Made by a program: the position numbers and the translations under genes
Shown: piece after piece, positions 44,695 to 62,215 of the stretch
How the letters are laid out: every line of letters begins with the position of its first letter
Position numbering within the stretch: the stretch's first letter is position 1
The notes under the pieces: generated by a model
Seen by the model: the letters and a program-made list of their open reading frames with translations, nothing else
Told to the model about the DNA's origin: nothing
Database searches by the model: none
Assembly (NCBI GenBank): GCA_040751795.1
Contig: JBFMHR010000001.1
Span: 64,001-128,000 of the forward strand
DNA length: 64,000 nt
Reading direction: 5' to 3'
Origin: Thermoplasmatota archaeon
GTDB taxonomy: Archaea > Thermoplasmatota > Thermoplasmata > UBA10834

Positions 44695-44832
44695 TCACCC
44701 GGCGCATCGGGACAGCCCGCAGAACAGGCAGGACTCGCAGCCCGACGTCCTCACCATCGGTCCGCCGCACTCCGGACAGTGCGCGCGCGCATCGACCCCC
44801 TCGATGGGGTCACCGCATGAAAGGCACTCCAT
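44695..44832 (-). CDS. 45-aa Cys-rich protein resembling the C-terminal Zn-ribbon/redox tail of class II RNR
   Basis: Manual translation MECLSCGDPIEGVDARAHCPECGGPMVRTSGCESCLFCGLSRCAG; purine-rich SD-like sequence upstream; not in the ORF track. Confidence 0.65.
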   Translation of the reverse strand: MECLSCGDPIEGVDARAHCPECGGPMVRTSGCESCLFCGLSRCAG

Positions 44833-44981: not shown

Positions 44982-45056
44982 GGCCGGGGTGGGGTAGTGG
45001 TATCCTTGGGGACTGTGGATCCCTTGACCCGGGTTCGATTCCCGGTCCCGGCCCCA
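44982..45056 (+). tRNA. tRNA-His (GUG) with encoded G-1 and 3' CCA
   Basis: Acceptor GCCGGGG/TCCCGGC, anticodon arm GGGGA-CTGTGGA-TCCCT, T arm CCGGG-TTCGATT-CCCGG, C73 discriminator; TATA-like TTTATCTA upstream. Confidence 0.96.
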
Positions 45057-45075: not shown

Positions 45076-45435
45076 TCACTCCGTGAAGCGCGCACCGCAG
45101 TGCGGGCACGCGTCGTCCTTCTCGCCGACGGGTTTGCCGCACGCAGGGCACTCGTAGGCCGCCGCGTCCTGGACCCCGGCCCCCGGCGCCTCGGTGGGCC
45201 CGTCCAGGTCCATGGTGGCGGCCTCGTCGACGGCCTCCGCGAACAGGGAGAACTGCGTCCCGCACTCGTCGCACCTTGTCTGGACCGCGGAGACGATCTC
45301 GCCGCAGAAGGGGCACTCGAAGCACATGTCCTCGAAGGACGCCCCGCACCGGGGACACCTGTCCTCGGCGCCTGACACCGTCTTCCCGCAGGAGAGGCAT
45401 GCCAGGACGAAGACCGGCGGCGACTCTTCGGACAT
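45076..45435 (-). CDS. Multi zinc-ribbon (DZR-type) protein
   Basis: Six CxxC motifs (CLSC, CPRC, CPFC, CDEC, CPAC, CPHC). Confidence 0.82.
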   Translation of the reverse strand: MSEESPPVFVLACLSCGKTVSGAEDRCPRCGASFEDMCFECPFCGEIVSAVQTRCDECGTQFSLFAEAVDEAATMDLDGPTEAPGAGVQDAAAYECPACGKPVGEKDDACPHCGARFTE

Positions 45436-45521
45436 GCCCCTCATTATCGGCCTGCGGATATATAATGCGTTGCTGCTGACCAGCGGGATGGAGAAACGAT
45501 GGCTCGCGGAGGGCTCATCGC

Positions 45522-46226
45522 CTATGCTTCTTGGGCTTGGCCCTCGCCAGCGGCGACTTCTTCGCCGGCTTGGAGGGCTTGGCGTGCTCCTTGGCCGGGT
45601 GCTTCTTCGCCGGGGCCTTCTTGGGCTCGTGCCTCGGCCTTGCGCGCCTTCGCGTGCCTCGGGGCGTGGACCTCTGGCTCCGCCGCCACGGCGACGGGGG
45701 CCGCGGCCGCCGCCTGCGCAGGCGCCTCCTCCACGGGTGCGCCCTCCTCCGGGAGCTCCTCGAACACGGCCTGGCAGCCCCCGCACGACTTGGCGGATAT
45801 GGATATCTTCTCGCCGCACACCGGGCAGTCGACCTTGGCCTCCTCGAGGGGGAGGTCGCAGCGTGGGCACTTCTCCTCGTCGCCGCGGATCATGAGGCCG
45901 CAGCCGGGGCAGGCCACCCTGCGGATGGTGGACTTGAGCTGGTCCAGCTCGTTGTTGATGATGCCGTCTACGAAGTCGTCCATGTCGAAGCCGGAGCTCG
46001 TCCTGACGACGCTCTCGGAGAACTCGGTCAGGTCGATGCCGCACGAGGCGCACTTGGTGGCGTTGCGCCATATGAGGCCGGAGCAGAAGGGGCACTCGAA
46101 GAGGGTCCCGGGGCCGAACTGCAGGCCGCACCTGGGGCACTCCGCATCGCTCGACCTCACTATCCTCCCGCACTTGAAGCAGCTCAGGAAGATGTCCCTG
46201 CTCTCCGCGGCTTCCATCATCGACAT
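45522..46226 (-). CDS. Multi zinc-ribbon protein; C-terminal tail probably frameshifted
   Basis: Eight CxxC motifs; N-terminal half aligns with 45076..45435; the alternative frame gives a K/P/A-rich tail ending at 45515. Confidence 0.8.
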   Translation of the reverse strand: MSMMEAAESRDIFLSCFKCGRIVRSSDAECPRCGLQFGPGTLFECPFCSGLIWRNATKCASCGIDLTEFSESVVRTSSGFDMDDFVDGIINNELDQLKSTIRRVACPGCGLMIRGDEEKCPRCDLPLEEAKVDCPVCGEKISISAKSCGGCQAVFEELPEEGAPVEEAPAQAAAAAPVAVAAEPEVHAPRHAKARKAEARAQEGPGEEAPGQGARQALQAGEEVAAGEGQAQEA

Positions 46227-46285
46227 GAAATAGCATCCCCGTTATTTAAACTCTGGAACCCGTAGTCCGACGCGCGACACCGCCC

Positions 46286-49200
46286 TCACGGGCCCTCTTC
46301 CCGCCTGGACCGCCTCCGGTAGATGGCGATGAAGACGGTCAGCATGAAGAGGACTGGCAAGGCCACCTCCGAGAACTCGGGGATCTTGTCGAAGGTGACG
46401 TCCATGGGCGCGGTCGTGTTCTGCGTCCACTGCCAGCATATGTACGCCTCGCCGCCAGCGGAGTAGATGGATGTCAGGTATGTCTTCGCATAGGTCGTCT
46501 GGGCCAGCGTGAGGAACGACCATGTGCCGGAGACGTTCTTCTTCGCCACTATGCTGTCCGAGCTGGTCCCGTCGCTGACCCACAGCGCGAAGAGGTTCCC
46601 CGTGGCCGAGTCGAGGGATATCGTGGGGAACTTCAGGGTGCCCCCGCCCGCGGAGTTCAGGGTGATGGGCGTGGACCAGGTCGTGGTGGATGTGTTGTGG
46701 ACGTACTGGATGTTCGGGGCCCATGCGGGCGTCCCGTCGACGTCGCCCGTGCCGTACACCACGTGGACCGTCCCGCGGGAGTCCACGACCGCGGAGGGCG
46801 GCGCATAGTCGGAGTTCGACTGGTCCGCCCCTCCAGCGTAGATCTCCTCGGGGGACGCCCAGCCCGAACCGGTGAACCTCGTCGCGGAGACGATCCCCTC
46901 GTATGTGCTCACCACCCAGACGACGGTGGTCGGCCCCGACCCCGGGAGGATGGTGCCCTTCATGCTCGGGTCCTTGATCAGGTTGATCGCGTTGTTCCTG
47001 TCGGTCCATGTGCCCTCGACGTCGCCTGCCGCGTCAGACTGGTAGCATCTGAGCTTGTACTGCGGCTGGCTCGCGTGCACCTTCGAGATCGATGCCACCC
47101 AGACCAGTCCGCTCGCGTCGAGGCACACGGTGGGATGCTTGCCGAGCATGGGGTTGCTGGATATCGCCAGTGTCTTCTCGTTCCCCCAGGCTATGCTGTG
47201 GCTCGACGGGGTGACGGCGCCCTTCCGGACGATCACGTTCGCCGTCGAGACCTCCGCTTCCCCCACGATGTACACGCTGCTGCCGGAGGCATCGTACCAT
47301 ATGGATGCCCGCCTCACGTCCGCGCTCGAGAAGGCGTATCCCCCGTCCGTCCATGTGACGCCGCCGTCGGTGCTGTACCTGTAGGCGGTGCTCGAGCCGT
47401 CGAAGTAGAAGCTCCAGAAGTTGGTGCCGTCGTAGAAGAGCTTCCTCTGCATCGAGCTGGCCGTCGCCGCCGAGGAGGTCGTGGAGTCGATGGCCCAGGC
47501 GAGCGTCCCGACGGAGGACGATATGCCGCCCGTGATGGCCAGCATGGTCGCCTCGTCGAGGGCGACGAAGTCCCTGTACTGCCTCCAGTCCGTCGTCTCG
47601 ATCACGAAGTCTATGTCGACCGCCCCGCCCAGGTTGCTGGCGAGCACGCCGACCTCCATGCTCTGGGAGTCGACCTCGGCGGCCAGCTCGTCGGAGGCGA
47701 GGGCCCAGGCGGTGCCCGTGTAGGAGTGCAGGACCGCGCTCACGACCATGCCGTTCAGGCCGCGCACCTCGACCCTGTATTCAGCGCCTATGACCTTCGA
47801 CTCGACCGAGACCGCGTAGCCCGTCAGGGCGGACATGTCCGAGTCGATGTAGATCCGGGTGATGTCCTCCGCGGTCTTCCTGGTGATGGGCACGACCGAC
47901 CCGCCGCTGCTGGGCACCGGCTTGCCCTTCATGACCGGGACGTAGGAGCCGCTGCACATCTCCCCCGCGACGCTCACGTAGAAGGACGACGAGAGGCTCG
48001 TGTTGAACACGCCCACCTGGCGGACGTCTATGTTGGGGTTCAGGACGTCCACGAGGTCGACGTCGGAGGCGGTCCTGCCGGACCAGTCGCCGAAGGCGCC
48101 GTCGATGGCGACCGCGGAGGGCGCGGAGCCCACATAGGCCCTCGCGGGGTGGCCGACGACCTCGACCGCGGCGAAGGTCGAGTTGATGTCCTCAGCGGCG
48201 ACGAACGCCGCGACGAACTGAGCAGGGGAGAAGGCCGAGGTGTCGAACTCGAAGTCCACCGTGACCACCTCGCCCGGCTGCAGGGTGAGCGCCTCGAAGG
48301 TGCTCACGGCCGGGGAGAGGTTCTCGGTCCGGACGTCCACCGAGCCCACCGTGCCCCCGGCGCCGTCGCACGAGAACTCGAGGCTCAGCACGGCCTCCGA
48401 GCCGGAGGCCGGGACTATCCCCGAGACAGGGACCGACGAGGAGAGGCCCTGCCTGACCGTGAGGACGCTCCCCTCCGACGGGACGCCCGCGCTCACCGAA
48501 CGCCTCGCCTGCTGGTCCTGGGACAGCAGCAGGAACCTGGCGTCCTCGGAAGGGGCCTGCTGGACGTTCCCCATCGCCTCGAGCCTGTTGTCCACGAGCC
48601 TGCTCGCCGCGCCGCCGAGCGACTCCCACGAGTTCCAGTCGCACATGTCGTCGGCGGAGGGCGGGTCGTACGCGCTGACCTGGGAGGACTCCACCGACCC
48701 GTTCCACCCGTCGAGTTCGACCATGAAGTCGGCCCCGAGGGTGCCGACGGCGTAGCCCGTGCCCGCGTCCCCGTCGGAGTCGATGAAGAGGAAGAAGCTC
48801 TCCACGGAGGTCGTCCCGAAGATGTCGCCCGTGGCGGCCACGTAGAGGAACACGCGAGTCCCTTCGACGCCGACGGACCACTCCTCGACCACGGTGATCG
48901 GGGTGGTGGTGAGTATCGACATGCTGTAGGGCGTCGCGCCGTCCCACTCGCCGAAATCCCCGTCGACCGAGTAGAGCTCGTCCTCCTTGGAGTAGGATAT
49001 GTAGATGAACGTGGGGATGATGATCACGAGGGCCACCAGGACCGCCAGGAACTGCCACCTGGCAATCCCGCGGCCGCGCCTCCTGGGCGCGCCCCCGAAC
49101 GCGCCGGACTTGGTCCCGTTGACCATCCCGGTGCCATTGACCAGCCCGTTCCCGTTCACGAGGCCCGTCCCGTTGACGAGGCCCGTGCCGTTCACGAGGC

Positions 49201-49768
49201 CCGTCCCGTTTATGGCCCCCCTGCCGTTCGTCAGCCCGCGGCCAATCTGCCCCGCCTCGACCGGGGGCACGGGGGTCAGGGCCTGCGGCTCCGGCCTCGC
49301 GGGCGCCTCCCCTGCCGCTTCTGCATCCCCGGGCGCCTCCTCGGGCGCCCCGGTGATGGGGGCCAGCAGGGGCTCCGGCTCCGCCGCCTCGCCGAGGGCG
49401 GCGCCGCAATTGGCGCAGGTCCTCGCGCCTTCAGCATGCGCCGTGCCGCACTCTGGGCACGAACCGACCGCCCCCTCCGCGGCGAGCGGGATGCCGCACC
49501 TGGCGCACTTGACCTCGCCCCCCCTCAGCTCGAGCCCGCAGCCCGGGCATGTGACCTTCACCTCGGGGATCGGGGCGTGGGGCACCTCGACCGCGGGCGC
49601 CTCCTCGGCGGCCTTGACCCGCCGCATGACCCGGCGCTCTATGACCTTGTCGAGCTCCCGCTTCATCATGACCTTGTCGATGTGCGTCGAGCAGTAGGGG
49701 CAAGTGTCGACGTCCGAGGGTACCTTCTTACCGCAGAGAGGGCAGTGGATCGTTCGCTCGTTCGGCAA
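46286..49768 (-). CDS. Large surface protein: cytoplasmic Zn-ribbons, GLVNGT repeats, TM, extracellular CBM9/DOMON-like and Asp-box regions, PEF-CTERM
   Basis: Six CxxC; 7 hexapeptide repeats; RRRGR plus TM; duplicated VDGDFGEW/IDGAFGDW; Asp-box YSTDGGVTW; IPEF-TM-RRRSR. Confidence 0.8.
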   Translation of the reverse strand: MPNERTIHCPLCGKKVPSDVDTCPYCSTHIDKVMMKRELDKVIERRVMRRVKAAEEAPAVEVPHAPIPEVKVTCPGCGLELRGGEVKCARCGIPLAAEGAVGSCPECGTAHAEGARTCANCGAALGEAAEPEPLLAPITGAPEEAPGDAEAAGEAPARPEPQALTPVPPVEAGQIGRGLTNGRGAINGTGLVNGTGLVNGTGLVNGNGLVNGTGMVNGTKSGAFGGAPRRRGRGIARWQFLAVLVALVIIIPTFIYISYSKEDELYSVDGDFGEWDGATPYSMSILTTTPITVVEEWSVGVEGTRVFLYVAATGDIFGTTSVESFFLFIDSDGDAGTGYAVGTLGADFMVELDGWNGSVESSQVSAYDPPSADDMCDWNSWESLGGAASRLVDNRLEAMGNVQQAPSEDARFLLLSQDQQARRSVSAGVPSEGSVLTVRQGLSSSVPVSGIVPASGSEAVLSLEFSCDGAGGTVGSVDVRTENLSPAVSTFEALTLQPGEVVTVDFEFDTSAFSPAQFVAAFVAAEDINSTFAAVEVVGHPARAYVGSAPSAVAIDGAFGDWSGRTASDVDLVDVLNPNIDVRQVGVFNTSLSSSFYVSVAGEMCSGSYVPVMKGKPVPSSGGSVVPITRKTAEDITRIYIDSDMSALTGYAVSVESKVIGAEYRVEVRGLNGMVVSAVLHSYTGTAWALASDELAAEVDSQSMEVGVLASNLGGAVDIDFVIETTDWRQYRDFVALDEATMLAITGGISSSVGTLAWAIDSTTSSAATASSMQRKLFYDGTNFWSFYFDGSSTAYRYSTDGGVTWTDGGYAFSSADVRRASIWYDASGSSVYIVGEAEVSTANVIVRKGAVTPSSHSIAWGNEKTLAISSNPMLGKHPTVCLDASGLVWVASISKVHASQPQYKLRCYQSDAAGDVEGTWTDRNNAINLIKDPSMKGTILPGSGPTTVVWVVSTYEGIVSATRFTGSGWASPEEIYAGGADQSNSDYAPPSAVVDSRGTVHVVYGTGDVDGTPAWAPNIQYVHNTSTTTWSTPITLNSAGGGTLKFPTISLDSATGNLFALWVSDGTSSDSIVAKKNVSGTWSFLTLAQTTYAKTYLTSIYSAGGEAYICWQWTQNTTAPMDVTFDKIPEFSEVALPVLFMLTVFIAIYRRRSRREEGP
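49111..49238 (-). repeat. Seven tandem 18-bp coding repeats (G-L/A/M-V/T/I-N-G-T/R/N)
   Basis: GLTNGR GAINGT GLVNGT GLVNGT GLVNGN GLVNGT GMVNGT; synonymous variation between units. Confidence 0.85.
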
Positions 49769-50033
49769 GCTCTAAACACCTCTGTTCACAGTGCGACCCG
49801 GCGCATCGCGGGGTGCGCAGCGGGAACCCTCGTAGGGTGAATTGCCTGGCATCCCGGTCTGGATGGTTAGAGGCCTCCTGGATATATATAGAATCCGTCT
49901 GATAGAGGTCACTGACTCCCCCCAGGGCGCATATGTCCAGCGAACGGGCCCATCCGATGGGCGCGCCCCGCCAGGGAGAGGGGGGCGTGCGCCCCACAAG
50001 ATTAATATACGCCCCATATCGTCGAAAGCCAGG

Positions 50034-52816: not shown

Positions 52817-52978
52817 ATTATCCGGATATAAGGGTTCACTATGACCGTGGCAACGGGGCCACCTACGGGCCCGCGCGCAGGCCGCCCGACATTATTGAAC
52901 ATGATACCGGAGGCCAAACGCTTTTAAGAGGGGCGACCGATGCTTTACCGTAGCCTCGCCCCCCGGAGGCATCTCGCC

Positions 52979-53707
52979 ATGACATCGGATCTCGGCACGG
53001 ATAGCGAAGACAGGGTTCAGCTGTTCATAGACGGCTTCGACAACAAGATCGGCGGAGGGATCAAGAAGGGCCACGTGGTGCTCCTCGCGGGCACCCCCGG
53101 CACCATGAAGTCCTCCATCGCCATGAACATGCTCATCAACAGCGTGAAGAAGAAGGGCGTGAACGTCCTCTACGTGAGCATCGAGGAGAGCAAGGAGAGC
53201 CTCCTCTCCGCCATAGAGATGCTCGGCCTGGGGAAGGTCGACGAGAACAAGTTCTTCATAGTCGACATCGGGAAGCTGAGGCTGGAGCACACCGACGCGG
53301 ACGTCGGGAGGGACTGGTTCAAGATCCTCAAGGAGTACCTGAGGAAGAAGGTCGAGAACGAGGGCGTCGAGGTGGTCGTCGTCGACTCCCTCACGGCGAT
53401 ATACTCCCTCGCCACGATACCCAATCCGAGGCAGGAGCTGTTCCACTTCTTCGGGTTCCTGAAGAAGCTGGGCGTCACGACCTTCCTGATATCGGAGACG
53501 CAGCAGAACGGGAACGCGTTCGGGCCGTACAACGAGGACTTCCTGGCGGACGGCGCCATACTGCTCAAGTTCGTGGAGGTCGGGGAGACCGACGTCCAGC
53601 TGAGGATCAGGGCCGTCAAGATGAGGCACTCGAAGATACACCACGGCTACCTGACGCTGCTCTACAAGGACGGAAGGTTCTCAGCCATCACCCCGCTCTC
53701 GGAGTGA
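52979..53707 (+). CDS. KaiC/RAD55-like single-domain RecA-superfamily ATPase
   Basis: GTPGTMKS, YVSIEES, VVVDSL, FLADG, KMRHS. Confidence 0.88.
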   Translation: MTSDLGTDSEDRVQLFIDGFDNKIGGGIKKGHVVLLAGTPGTMKSSIAMNMLINSVKKKGVNVLYVSIEESKESLLSAIEMLGLGKVDENKFFIVDIGKLRLEHTDADVGRDWFKILKEYLRKKVENEGVEVVVVDSLTAIYSLATIPNPRQELFHFFGFLKKLGVTTFLISETQQNGNAFGPYNEDFLADGAILLKFVEVGETDVQLRIRAVKMRHSKIHHGYLTLLYKDGRFSAITPLSE

Positions 53708-60078: not shown

Positions 60079-60507
60079 ATGGTGCTTGTGACGGTCGTCG
60101 GAGAGCTTCAGTGCAGGAAGGGCTTCGAGTTCGCCTTCTCGGGGCCCCTGGCTGAGTGCAGGGACTGCAAGGTCAGGAACGTCTGCTTCCACCTCGAGGA
60201 GAACAAGTGGTACAGGGTCACCGAGGTCAGGGAGGTCCACCACGAGTGCAAGGTGCACGAGGGGGGCGTGAGGGTCGTCGAGGTCGAGCGGGTGCCGACC
60301 AGGGCGGCCATACCCGCCAGGACCGCGCTGGAGGGGTCCATGATCACGTGGGAGGGGAGCGACTGCGACGCCGTCGGCTGCCCCAACTACAGGCTCTGCT
60401 GCCCGGCCGGCGCCTCCGACGGGATGAGGTACAAGGTCCTCTCCGTCGAGCCCTCCGAGGTGGTCTGCCCCAGGGCGAGGAGCCTCAGGGTCGTCTCGCT
60501 CGAATGA
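60079..60507 (+). CDS. UPF0179 family protein
   Basis: VTVVG....KG.EF, CRDCKVRNVC, HECKVHEGGV, C...CP....C.P. Confidence 0.87.
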   Translation: MVLVTVVGELQCRKGFEFAFSGPLAECRDCKVRNVCFHLEENKWYRVTEVREVHHECKVHEGGVRVVEVERVPTRAAIPARTALEGSMITWEGSDCDAVGCPNYRLCCPAGASDGMRYKVLSVEPSEVVCPRARSLRVVSLE

Positions 60508-62215
60508 GCAGGAAGACCGCCAGTACCGCTGCCACCGGTATCAGCAGGGCGGGGAACTCGGGTATCGCCGTCCCCTGGACCCACACCGTCACCGTGTCGG
60601 TGTCGGAGCTCCCCTGGGCGTCCGTGACCGTGAGCGTCACCGGGTAGACGCCCTCGGTCCAGAAGGTGAACGCGGGCGACACTCCGTAGACCGAGACGTC
60701 CGAGCCGTTGTAGACGAAGGTCCATGTGTAGTTCGTTATCCCGCCGTCGTCCGTCGAGTCGGACGCGTCGAACGCCACCTCGGCGCCCGGGGCGCTGCTG
60801 ATGTCGTCCCCGGCGTCGGCCACCGGCGCCGCGTTCAGGGACTCCGTGACCGTGAAGGAATGCACCTCGTACGGCGCGTATCTCGGGCTCATGAGCTCGA
60901 CCCCCCCGAGGTCGTGCGCGACGATGTAGTACTCCACCGTCGAGCCGGCGGCCTGCGAGGGTATCGTGCCCGAGTAGGAGTCGTTGGAGGCCCCCTGGGC
61001 CATGGGCGACTCGGCCCATGCGCCGCCGTCCACCCTGTAGAGCACGCCGAGGTCCGAGGCGTCGACGCCCCTGCCCGCGGTGATCTCCGCCTCCACCTCG
61101 TGGCCCAGGGCGGAGAACTCCGAGTCGCCGAGGGGCGTGTGGGATATGGCAAAAGGCGCCTGGTAGCGGTCACCGCACAGCTCTATCCCGAGGAGGGTGG
61201 GGGCGTAGTTCTCGTACACTATCTCGAGGACGTCCTCCTCCCACTCCGGGTGGAACTCGGTCGCGCCCATCTCGAACAGGAACGCGAAGATGCCCAGGCT
61301 GCCGTAGAGCCAGTCCAGGGAGTCGCCCGTGGTCGCGTACATGTCCACCGACTGCGCCGCGGTGTAGCCGTTCAGGGCGGCCAGCTGCTGCCCTATGTCG
61401 ACGAAGTGATCGTCGTCGGCCGTGAGGTTGGCCGTGTACCCCCAGGGCCACATGACCGAGTCATCATAGGTGTGGAAGTCGAACGCGATCTGGAAGTCGT
61501 GGGCCCGCGCGAGGTCGCGCACCGCCTGCGTCTCCGGCTCGGAGAACGGCTCCTCGCCGCAGTAGACATCGGACGATGTGAGGTCGGAGGTGCCCGCCCC
61601 GCCCCAGGCCCCCAGCGGGTCCCCGTTCTCGGAGCCGTTGTAGTTCCTGTTGAGGTCTACCCCGAACGTGCCGTCGAGGTTGTCCCTCCTGTTCTTCCTC
61701 CACATGTCGTCCACCGTGAGGGCGTAGTCCAGCCCGTCCGGGTTGACCACCGGGACGATCCATATCTCCCGGTTGTCTATGAGCCAGCTGACCCTGGCGT
61801 CGAGGCCGTAGCCCTCCGTGAGGTTCTCGATGACGTTGAGGGCGGTCTCGTGCGTCGGCCACTCCCGCGCGTGGTGCAGGGCCACCAGGAGGAACTCGGG
61901 CTCGTCCTCATCGACGCCCGCGTTGTCGGAGATCTTGATGGCGAGTATGTCCCGGTCCGCCACGGCGGCGGTCTTCTCCCAGCTGTCGCCGATGTCGTAG
62001 AGCGCGGCGATGTCCGGGTGGTCGGCCACGGTCTGCTCGAGTATCTGCTTGACCTCGGTGTAGTTCCTGTACCCGTAGTTCACGGGGGGCCCCGCCGTCG
62101 GGGCGGATGCCGCAGGTGCAGCATCGTCCCCTCCCGATGCAGGAGCAGCCAATACCGCTGATACCATCAGAGCGGCCACAAGCACGATCGATGCCGGAAG
62201 TATCCCAGAACTCAT
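60485..62215 (-). CDS. Secreted M14 zinc carboxypeptidase (carboxypeptidase T-like) with PKD domain and PEF-CTERM
   Basis: Signal peptide; HHARE, NPDG, WRKNR, DLNRN, FSEPET, DFHTY; PKD motif; IPEFPALL...RARRP. Confidence 0.92.
   Translation of the reverse strand: MSSGILPASIVLVAALMVSAVLAAPASGGDDAAPAASAPTAGPPVNYGYRNYTEVKQILEQTVADHPDIAALYDIGDSWEKTAAVADRDILAIKISDNAGVDEDEPEFLLVALHHAREWPTHETALNVIENLTEGYGLDARVSWLIDNREIWIVPVVNPDGLDYALTVDDMWRKNRRDNLDGTFGVDLNRNYNGSENGDPLGAWGGAGTSDLTSSDVYCGEEPFSEPETQAVRDLARAHDFQIAFDFHTYDDSVMWPWGYTANLTADDDHFVDIGQQLAALNGYTAAQSVDMYATTGDSLDWLYGSLGIFAFLFEMGATEFHPEWEEDVLEIVYENYAPTLLGIELCGDRYQAPFAISHTPLGDSEFSALGHEVEAEITAGRGVDASDLGVLYRVDGGAWAESPMAQGASNDSYSGTIPSQAAGSTVEYYIVAHDLGGVELMSPRYAPYEVHSFTVTESLNAAPVADAGDDISSAPGAEVAFDASDSTDDGGITNYTWTFVYNGSDVSVYGVSPAFTFWTEGVYPVTLTVTDAQGSSDTDTVTVWVQGTAIPEFPALLIPVAAVLAVFLLIRARRP

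Follow-up and report, generated by a model that had tools for sequence, protein, structure and literature searches.

In a 64,000-nucleotide stretch of DNA from a Thermoplasmatota archaeon (contig JBFMHR010000001.1, positions 64,001 to 128,000; the whole of this stretch is hereafter the window), three adjacent genes are best explained as encoding a large surface protein anchored at both ends, here called BIG, and two small zinc-ribbon proteins, ZR234 and ZR122, that are paralogous to its head. In this combined reading, to which a probability of about 0.55 is given with the origin of the parts included, BIG would be held in the membrane at both ends: three zinc ribbons, a tether of about 100 residues (Pro/Glu/Ala-rich, then Asn-Gly repeats) and a basic patch would all lie in the cytoplasm, helix 237-259 would cross the membrane, two beta domains, a middle region and a propeller would stand outside, and a PEF signal would end the chain. 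The single ArtC-like archaeosortase of the genome would then remove the C-terminal helix and add a lipid anchor, by analogy with ArtA and PGF-CTERM proteins, and the propeller may bind or process a glycan. The head would be a docking module derived from a protein of the ZR234 type, in which two double ribbons are joined by a helical hairpin, and ZR234 would itself be an older, order-wide and highly constrained cytoplasmic protein whose orthologues bear a polybasic tail. Taken by themselves, the architecture of BIG and its family placement are rated as likely. The three genes are as follows.

46286-49768, minus strand: BIG gene, 1160 amino acids (aa), TTG start with GGTG 8 nt upstream (open reading frame and translation)
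45522-46226, minus strand: ZR234 gene, 234 aa, four zinc ribbons (translation)
45076-45444, minus strand: ZR122 gene, 122 aa, three zinc ribbons, tail-less (translation)

The Pfam scan placed zinc-ribbon and double-zinc-ribbon models above their cut-offs in all three proteins and otherwise returned just a sub-threshold BNR match in BIG. The paired CxxC..CxxC units were recognised by DZR (PF12773, gathering cut-off 27.3 bits), with 35.2 bits in BIG, 37.7 in ZR234 and 41.4 in ZR122; no NCBIfam family exceeded its cut-off in any of the three, and no KaiC/RecA-type ATPase domain (PF06745) was found in them by Pfam. In AlphaFold2 models of BIG and ZR234, the predicted ribbons are beta-hairpins with a predicted local distance difference test score (pLDDT) of 80-89. 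The BIG model was built on a 91-sequence alignment, to which conservation in BIG refers below, and has a mean pLDDT of 81.6. Its N-terminal part is organised as follows.

49691..49744, minus strand: zinc ribbon A (C9, C12, C23, C26), Cys at least 90% conserved, pLDDT 85-87
49619..49672, minus strand: inter-ribbon helix 33-50 (AlphaFold2), aligned by BLASTP with the helical hairpin of ZR234
49406..49549, minus strand: zinc ribbons B and C (C74-C91, C104-C121), a double zinc ribbon (Pfam DZR at 74-122, 35.2 bits)
49244..49393, minus strand: Pro/Glu/Ala-rich disordered linker 126-175, pLDDT ~30-36, the least conserved region (0.19 identity)
49112..49243, minus strand: Asn-Gly hexad repeats (G-x-x-N-G-x, 176-219), cytoplasmic and membrane-adjoining, predicted disordered, part of profile A3 (see below)
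48992..49087, minus strand: basic patch RRRGRGIAR and signal-anchor helix 237-259, hydropathy peak of 2.7 at 240-258, helical in AlphaFold2

Three Pfam models exceed their cut-offs in the head (Zn_Ribbon_1 with 42 bits, Zn_ribbon_3 with 38.1, DZR with 35.2), its three ribbons are modelled at pLDDT 82-87, and the eight cysteines of ribbons B and C are invariant; against PDB sequences, profile A1 gave generic ribbon matches only (PolD DP2 at E 3e-4, ArnA, ribosomal zinc proteins). Disorder is predicted over residues 127-236, the Asn-Gly repeats included, and N211, G212 and G214 of these repeats are invariant. The anchor helix is likewise conserved, with W238 invariant among the 91 homologues, P250 invariant in profile A3, and F240 and F254 also conserved. 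Hydropathy identifies only two membrane-type segments in BIG, 240-258 and 1132-1150; RRRGRGIAR precedes the first, RRRSRREEGP comes after the second, and the region between them is acidic (98 Asp and Glu against 42 Lys and Arg). Because basic residues flank the N side of the first segment and the C side of the second, a topology with both termini inside and the body outside, and with about the first 230 residues in the cytoplasm, is strongly indicated by the sequence. The same placement of the head follows from relatives in which a KaiC-type ATPase lies N-terminal to a single anchor.

The N-terminal CxxC ribbons, Asn-Gly repeats, basic patch and transmembrane helix had been listed, together with the co-orientation of the genes, in an earlier description made from the letters alone (hereafter the sequence-only reading), and all were recovered where that description had placed them. 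Its proposal of a head inside and a body outside is supported in turn by hydropathy, by the flanking charges and by the ATPase heads of relatives, and the N-terminus is not predicted to be extracellular.

The Asn-Gly repeats merit separate comment. Among 149 relatives (defined below), the 90 residues before the anchor contain a median of 10 Asn-Gly dipeptides, which are conserved despite the predicted disorder; Asn-Gly is the dipeptide most prone to deamidation. Two ideas about the repeats were dropped: a left-handed beta-helix, given a pLDDT of ~30 and no strands in the AlphaFold2 model (a monomer model, which leaves an oligomeric fold possible), and N-glycosylation at N-G-T sequons, given their cytoplasmic side and the N-G-R or N-G-L of other members.

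The predicted outer part of BIG, of ~870 residues, consists of two related beta domains, a middle beta region and a 7-bladed propeller.

48509..48985, minus strand: D1 (262-420), all-beta, with VDGDFGEW and FIDSDGDxxTGY..GAD..E..GWNG motifs, pLDDT >90, in profile A3
48134..48508, minus strand: middle all-beta region (421-545), AlphaFold2 strands, pLDDT >90, no Pfam family match
47534..48133, minus strand: D2 (546-745), internal duplicate of D1 by BLASTP, with IDGAFGDW
46385..47512, minus strand: 7-bladed beta-propeller (753-1128), by VIA and Foldseek, with a single Asp-box at 47351-47374

The duplicated (V/I)DGxFGxW motifs, already noticed in the letters, lie at ~268 (VDGDFGEW) and ~555 (IDGAFGDW) and belong to domains that BLASTP relates to each other (E 1e-7, 29% over 132 aa). 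No Pfam family matched D1 or D2 at E<=10 when each was scanned separately, and Pfam and NCBIfam hold no family for the outer part of BIG or its paralogues, the Lamin Tail Domain (one BIG paralogue and 8 of 43 shorter relatives) aside. Language-model features placed D2 nearest to Glucodextran_C clusters (0.93, 17 of 30 matches) and residues 262-745 nearest to CBM9_1 (0.86), both as leads only; among the 43 shorter relatives, none matched Glucodextran_C (PF09985) at E<=0.01, and the single weak CBM9_1 match falls in another part of its protein.

For the propeller, VIA gave Z of 28-31 to 7-bladed propellers over the model range 753-1132, and Foldseek gave E of 7e-10 to 2e-9 to a PL42 lyase, Photorhabdus lectins and NanB/NanC sialidases at 9-14% identity; these matches, obtained with a model, point to a fold class and not to a function. 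Classical sialidases are 6-bladed. BIG contains one Asp-box (STDGGVTW, 799-806), as had been read from the letters; Pfam BNR scores 13.4 bits (E 0.08, residues 798-807), below its cut-off of 27, and repeated Asp-boxes are absent. The earlier designation of the outer part as glycan-binding is weakened: the propeller fold lies near lectins, lyases and sialidases, and glycan binding itself is a suggestion from fold class and a language-model lead only.

At the other end of BIG, the tail IPEFSEVALPVLFMLTVFIAIYRRRSRREEGP is tripartite, with a PEF motif, a hydrophobic helix and a basic cluster.

46289..46381, minus strand: PEF-CTERM-like signal (PEF, hydrophobic helix, RRRSRREEGP), TIGR03024 as best match, AlphaFold2 helix 1133-1154

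P1130 is invariant among the 91 homologues, and E1131 and F1132 are at least 90% conserved. TIGR03024 is the best match to the last 40 aa (20.6 bits, E 3.7e-4, profile positions 1-24 of 25), although it gave no match at E<=1 against full-length BIG; the tails of three paralogues scored 22.1 bits, 15.6 bits and no match, all short of the 23-bit cut-off. In the genome, the archaeosortase family is represented by a single gene, which exceeds the cut-off of Pfam Exosortase_EpsH and scores 52.5 bits with TIGR04178 (cut-off 23); its best subfamily is ArtC (TIGR03762), at 80.1 bits against a cut-off of 100. Archaeosortase C recognises PEF-CTERM, according to a passage of PMC5244752 that cites Haft 2012. 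A pattern scan of the genome found seven open reading frames with P[EG]F-type tails, one of which lacks a hydrophobic segment and was discounted. In five of the six credible ones, Asn-Gly repeats accompany an anchor helix well removed from the N-terminus, and in four of these 1, 3, 4 or 7 ribbons precede the anchor. Sortase-type substrates usually carry cleaved signal peptides. BIG has none at its N-terminus, its first hydrophobic segment beginning at 237 after the ribbons and the disordered tether, and it is therefore best regarded as a variant and not as an ordinary PEF-CTERM member. With this proviso, the PEF-type C-terminal anchor and surface location proposed from the letters are supported by the tail motif, its conservation and the archaeosortase gene.

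Two further observations touch this system. An M14 zinc carboxypeptidase with a PKD domain (576 aa, 60485-62215, minus strand) has a PEF-CTERM-like tail (TIGR03024 16.2 bits) and is the sole PEF-tail open reading frame of the genome with an ordinary N-terminal hydrophobic leader. On contig C45, a radical SAM/SPASM-type gene (locus L023, 2382-3380, minus strand) is convergent with the archaeosortase gene (L023, 1162-2235) and lies ~150 bp from it.

It is strongly indicated that BIG belongs to a Thermoplasmatota superfamily with a variable cytoplasmic head, Asn-Gly repeats, an anchor helix and a DGxFxEW domain. Profile A3, which covers the Asn-Gly repeats, the anchor helix and D1 and was built from 16 sequences, matched 1384 representative clusters at E<=1e-3, 747 at E<=1e-10 and 377 at E<=1e-30; against the PDB it gave nothing meaningful. 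Head and tail statistics were taken from the best 150 of the 1384 matches, 149 of which contain the motif [VIL]DGx[FLW]x[DE]W. Exactly one hydrophobic segment precedes the motif in 144 of these 149 relatives (positions 32 to 1062, median 232), at least one head ribbon occurs in 67 (maximum 12), and PEF stands within the last 45 aa in 99, of which 85 also have a terminal hydrophobic segment; some relatives without a PEF end may be cut by contig ends. In 22 long-head relatives, hand-picked for long heads and few ribbons and thus not a random sample, Pfam found a KaiC-type ATPase in 9, TPR in 13 and helix-hairpin-helix in 2, with FG-GAP repeats in 5, Sortilin/BNR in 1 and no family at all in four members. 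The general idea, put forward in the sequence-only reading, that outside domains are coupled to inside modules gains support from such distant members, whose heads hold a KaiC-type ATPase, TPR, helix-hairpin-helix or up to 12 ribbons.

BIG is one of five paralogues in its genome, and orthologues that match it over the full length occur in its taxonomic family. In a phylum sample of 151 genomes drawn evenly, the anchor module was present in 25, which represent 18 of 95 genera and have at most 19 matches each, and an ArtC-like match (E<=1e-8) was found in 24 of these 25 genomes as compared with 16 of the 126 others; the curated ArtC cut-off was exceeded in one genome only. Layouts that pair ribbons with membrane helices are common in this organism more generally: many further open reading frames on contigs C1, C12 and C45 combine two or three N-terminal zinc ribbons with two to four membrane helices (e.g., C1:191644-192297, C1:467369-468013, C12:60455-61186 and C45:224094-224942).

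The likeness of BIG to ZR234 is specific at the level of the head. By BLASTP, BIG 9-130 aligns with ZR234 30-160 (34% identity over 134 aa, E 2e-14) and ZR234 aligns with ZR122 (E 4e-16); the match of BIG to ZR122 is weak (E 2e-4). Both alignments that had been seen in the letters, that of the BIG segment with the 45522 neighbour and that of the neighbour's N-half with the 45076 protein, are thereby reproduced. The BIG head scores 62 bits with ZR234, 48 with a second ZR234-type paralogue (280 aa, on another contig of the genome) and 32-45 with the heads of its own three ribbon- or NG-bearing paralogues; being closer to ZR234 than to its own paralogues, it shares more with ZR234 than CxxC spacing.

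ZR234 is modelled by AlphaFold2 as two double zinc ribbons (13-65 and 103-155) linked by a helical hairpin (66-100) and followed by a disordered tail; Foldseek with this model gave nothing at E<=1e-3. In ZR122, the ribbons are C16-C33, C43-C61 and C99-C116. Since its orthologues align from residue 4 onward, translation of ZR122 probably begins at the ATG at 45435. In the protein collection, 204 relatives of ZR234 were found at E<=1e-3; the 120 listed are named 'hypothetical', 'double zinc ribbon domain-containing' or with a JGI RPABC4/Spt4 label, and their organism labels are Thermoplasmata or Thermoplasmatota. Matches at E<=1e-20 occurred in 24 of 24 genomes of the same taxonomic family (one of them, in G016 at 5.8e-23, at paralogue level) and in 3 of 3 genomes of the sister family, and in none of 13 genomes from 13 other families of the class; no full-length ZR234-type match was found in the 150 other genomes of the phylum sample, 24 of which have the anchor module.

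Conservation sets ZR234 apart from BIG. A 58-sequence alignment of ZR234 has 62 invariant columns in residues 13-155, identity within the genus is 80-94% for the ZR234 ribbon core and 52-75% for BIG, and across homologues the head regions of BIG reach 0.23-0.47 identity as against a nearly invariant ZR234 core; ZR234 must therefore be constrained by something besides BIG. The tails of ZR234 relatives in the same alignment are variable, Lys/Pro/Ala-rich and end in KKRKR-like runs. In the window, a tail of this kind is present out of frame.

45515..45631, minus strand: Lys/Pro/Ala-rich tail of ZR234, off the ribbon frame, ending KPKKHRR and stop (three-frame translation; stop at 45515-45517)

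All seven genus orthologues inspected carry a K-rich tail in frame, with a similar end. Over 45515-45700, therefore, the reading frames of the window copy of ZR234 point either to a real frame shift or to an assembly fault, and the final ~50 residues of the protein as read here (234 aa) are probably not native.

Synteny gives the relationship a history. BIG and ZR234 lie side by side in 22 of the 24 genomes of the family (in one of them ZR234 is inverted at a contig edge, and in one the pair is split across contig ends); of the remaining two, one has both genes at contig ends and one, 67% complete, yielded neither orthologue. Next to them comes ZR122, in 9 of 11 genus loci (contig ends cut the remaining two) and in 6 of 6 family loci. 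These six family loci are collinear over a 12 kb neighbourhood (RNase-H-like, DHH, OTC, ZR122, ZR234, BIG, RtcB, HD, KaiC). In the sister family, the same block holds ZR234 between RtcB and OTC in 3 of 3 loci, where both BIG and ZR122 are absent; a search of these three genomes (86-89% complete) found no ZR122 orthologue at any other place, and BIG is matched in them at best at paralogue level (29-30% identity). The conserved neighbourhood looked for after the sequence-only reading is thus real as regards the trio within the family, but a block of unrelated housekeeping genes is equally collinear, so this co-location is unspecific. Two irregular loci were also seen: in G001 (locus L004), at the start of a contig, the ZR234 orthologue is oriented opposite to BIG and adjoins a duplicate fragment of 28 aa, and in G019 (locus L017) the head region of the BIG orthologue is interrupted, matching in two pieces with stops between; either may be an assembly artefact or a real rearrangement.

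Given that the BIG head is nearest to ZR234 and that the sister family has ZR234 alone at this place, local duplication and fusion best explain the adjacency. ZR234 would be the older resident, beside which BIG, with its ZR234-like head, and ZR122 were added in the family ancestor; for the head, this history is drawn from best-match scores and synteny and not from a tree, the sequences being short and dominated by cysteine. A shared origin of this kind makes it probable that BIG, ZR234 and ZR122 recognise one type of cytoplasmic partner, or else one another. We infer that neither soluble ribbon protein serves BIG as a dedicated adaptor, and there is no evident signalling output.

Upstream of the three genes, the following boxes were recognised by their letters.

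49883..49890, minus strand: candidate TATA box TATATATA, ~115 nt upstream of the BIG start
46243..46250, minus strand: TATA-like box TTTAAATA, 17 nt upstream of the ZR234 ATG
45458..45466, minus strand: TATA-like box ATTATATAT, upstream of ZR122

We take TATATATA to be a TATA box from general knowledge of archaeal promoters, and TTTAAATA suggests that ZR234 may have its own promoter and a near-leaderless mRNA. A word search of sequencing runs listed four DNA runs with small shares (0.06-0.09 of words) and no RNA run.

Several points weigh against the preferred reading of a doubly anchored protein with a ZR234-derived head. The trio is tied together by likeness and synteny, not by experiment or co-variation, and each of the three genes has its own TATA-like box, so that co-transcription is not indicated. 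Without a tree, the synteny of the sister family fits loss of BIG and ZR122 as well as gain, and the best module match of ZR122 is the second ZR234-type paralogue (80 bits) and not ZR234 (70.5 bits), which renders an origin of ZR122 by local duplication uncertain. Both the PEF tail (20.6 bits against 23) and the ArtC match (80.1 against 100) fall short of curated cut-offs, and Ser-x-Ser (S256, S258) just past the anchor is a possible signal-peptidase site that would free the head. Fold searches with full BIG were filled by the propeller, and the folds of D1 and D2 stay unplaced. Regarding the superfamily, the 9 KaiC heads come from a chosen set of 22 and give no family-wide frequency, while the cross-genome counts include kin, are not independent and make the co-occurrence with ArtC an association, not a statistical test.

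The alternative closest to the sequence-only reading is that the trio forms a dedicated trans-membrane signalling or envelope-organising module, in which ZR234 and ZR122 act as adaptors through homotypic ribbon contacts and relay events at the outer domains. Such a module would account for the specific likeness of the BIG head to ZR234, inter-ribbon helix included, for their adjacency in 22 of 24 family genomes and the intact trio in all six family loci fetched, and for the joint presence of BIG and ZR122 in the family and their joint absence from the sister family. A functional unit would also suit the parallel layout of the two proteins, in which ribbons and an acidic spacer lead to a membrane-proximal element (the helix in BIG, the polybasic tail in ZR234 orthologues), as well as the KaiC-type ATPases and TPR among superfamily heads; KaiC-like ATPases were reportedly proposed as archaeal signalling hubs by Makarova and colleagues in mBio in 2017. 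Nevertheless, ZR234 persists at this locus without BIG or ZR122 in all three sister-family genomes, a finding that weakens the claim of dedicated adaptors, and it is much more conserved than the BIG head. The whole 12-kb neighbourhood is as collinear as the trio, and each gene has a TATA-like box of its own. Ribbon heads also occur where no soluble multi-ribbon neighbour does: three other ribbon-headed paralogues of the genome lack one, as do two ribbon-headed members in loci of other classes (20 loci, 361 kb, a small sample with 16 module genes, 2 of them ribbon-bearing, and no soluble multi-ribbon open reading frame), and the phylum sample has 24 genomes with the anchor module and no full-length ZR234-type protein. 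Complex prediction for BIG 1-135 with ZR234 1-160, each with its own alignment, scored 0.00 in both runs and weighs neither way. On balance, a dedicated module is unlikely.

A broader proposal takes the Asn-Gly-anchor superfamily as a set of unrecognised archaeal inside-outside connectors, an integrin-like receptor and anchor system processed by archaeosortase. Propeller, FG-GAP or lectin-like outer domains would be coupled, mechanically or allosterically, via the helix and the Asn-Gly tether to cytoplasmic hubs such as zinc-ribbon arrays, KaiC-type ATPases, TPR or helix-hairpin-helix; ZR234 and ZR122 would be adaptors of, or competitors for, the ribbon heads, and the invariant Asn-Gly runs might serve as an oligomerisation element or a deamidation-prone timer. 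This proposal is tentative and, as it stands, improbable.

Still more doubtful is the notion that the head is a device of biogenesis and topology, whose fast-folding ribbons, basic patch and Asn-Gly tether hold the N-terminus inside for type II export, the soluble ribbon proteins being neighbours by descent with an unrelated task (e.g., nucleic-acid or membrane binding by the Lys-rich tail). In its favour, the heads vary in kind and in length (32 to 1062 residues, 82 of 149 ribbon-free) around a constant Asn-Gly repeat and anchor, and ZR234, with Lys-rich tails in its orthologues, is order-wide and independent of BIG. Denzer, Nabholz and Spiess (EMBO J, 1995) reportedly showed that folded domains at the N-terminus of a signal-anchor protein, a zinc finger included, prevent that end from being translocated. 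The basic patch and the 23-residue anchor would already suffice to keep the N-terminus inside, however, and both the invariance of the ribbon B and C cysteines in 91 homologues and the ATPase, TPR and helix-hairpin-helix heads suggest a function beyond topology. Finally, it is very improbable that head and anchor are a very long leader, cut by signal peptidase after Ser-x-Ser 256-258 to leave mature BIG held by lipid only and the ribbon head as a small membrane protein of its own. Conservation of S258 (at least 90%) would suit such a cut, as would the S-Y-S and acidic residues that come after the helix. The hydrophobic stretch of ~22 residues, however, is typical of an anchor rather than of a signal-peptide core, the four paralogues of the genome lack the Ser-x-Ser, and the helix sequence is conserved (W238, F240, F254), as expected of a retained membrane segment.

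Other genes of the neighbourhood may be noted. A tRNA-His (GTG; 44983-45056, plus strand) lies directly downstream of ZR122 on the opposite strand. Between it and the OTC gene, a 45-aa open reading frame with eight Cys (44695-44832, minus strand) has weak DUF7129 and A2L zinc-ribbon matches, is kept in place in 5 family loci and 2 sister-family loci (tblastn) and constitutes a fourth small zinc-finger gene of the neighbourhood. A stand-alone KaiC-type ATPase gene (52940-53707, plus strand; PF06745, 133 bits) is found 3 kb from BIG inside the conserved block; distant members of the BIG superfamily carry the same type of domain fused as a cytoplasmic head. The gene stays in the sister-family block in which BIG is missing, so its tie to BIG is no more than a possibility.

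In the usual picture, archaeosortase substrates are secreted, losing a signal peptide at one end and gaining a lipid at the opposite end; the substrates predicted here retain a cytoplasmic N-terminus that is long and often rich in domains. If this is true, Thermoplasmatota possess a sizeable unannotated family, fixed in the membrane at both ends, that links surface domains to ATPases, TPR arrays or zinc ribbons, with a bearing on envelope organisation, adhesion and sensing in mostly uncultured and possibly wall-less archaea. Three objects are offered for testing: the conserved unit in which the Asn-Gly tether leads through the anchor helix to the DGxFxEW domain; a four-ribbon protein, specific to the order and nearly invariant, that carries a polybasic tail; and a natural 'fused against free' pair for studies of multi-ribbon binding. 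A full-text literature search, whose scope did not extend to Haft 2012 and Makarova 2017, returned no description of zinc-ribbon or Asn-Gly-anchored PEF-CTERM proteins, and a term search of PMC5898192 and PMC12448462 gave nothing relevant and one of PMC6393860 only a reference to the 2017 KaiC paper; to this extent the architecture may still be called undescribed, as it was from the letters.

Among known systems, PEF-CTERM/ArtC substrates stand closest to BIG. They share with it a C-terminal PEF motif, hydrophobic helix and basic tail, a surface location and a large multi-domain build, and, as in their case, one archaeosortase-family gene, here closest to ArtC, would serve several substrates. 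Unlike them, BIG has no signal peptide and would retain an anchor behind a cytoplasmic head of 230 residues (to ~1060 in relatives), mature BIG would be tethered at both ends, and both hidden Markov model scores lie under the curated cut-offs. In Haloferax volcanii, the C-terminal helix of the S-layer glycoprotein, a PGF-CTERM substrate of ArtA, is removed by the archaeosortase and replaced by a lipid anchor. This large surface protein with a sorted C-terminus offers a mechanistic template for BIG, although it differs in its PGF motif, its enzyme subfamily, its Sec signal peptide and its lack of a cytoplasmic domain; the set of five BIG paralogues, with up to 19 matches in other genomes, resembles an adhesin or enzyme repertoire more than a single lattice protein.

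Staphylococcus aureus TcaA (NF053815) and the zinc-binding anti-sigma factors resemble BIG in placing a zinc module inside, one helix in the membrane and a sensor-like domain outside. Matches to TcaA are weak and at ribbon level only (11.8-17 bits, cut-off 550), and BIG differs from both in its three ribbons, Asn-Gly tether and second, C-terminal anchor; to our knowledge, Archaea have no sigma factors. Lastly, the 7-bladed propellers of integrin alpha, lectins and lyases (PDB 5e6r, 5c9o, 7esk) resemble BIG 753-1132 in fold only (Z 25-28), at 5-12% identity, and no relationship by descent is claimed. In the relatives of BIG, FG-GAP repeats outside and protein-interaction modules inside nevertheless make up a layout that would work like an inside-outside connector.

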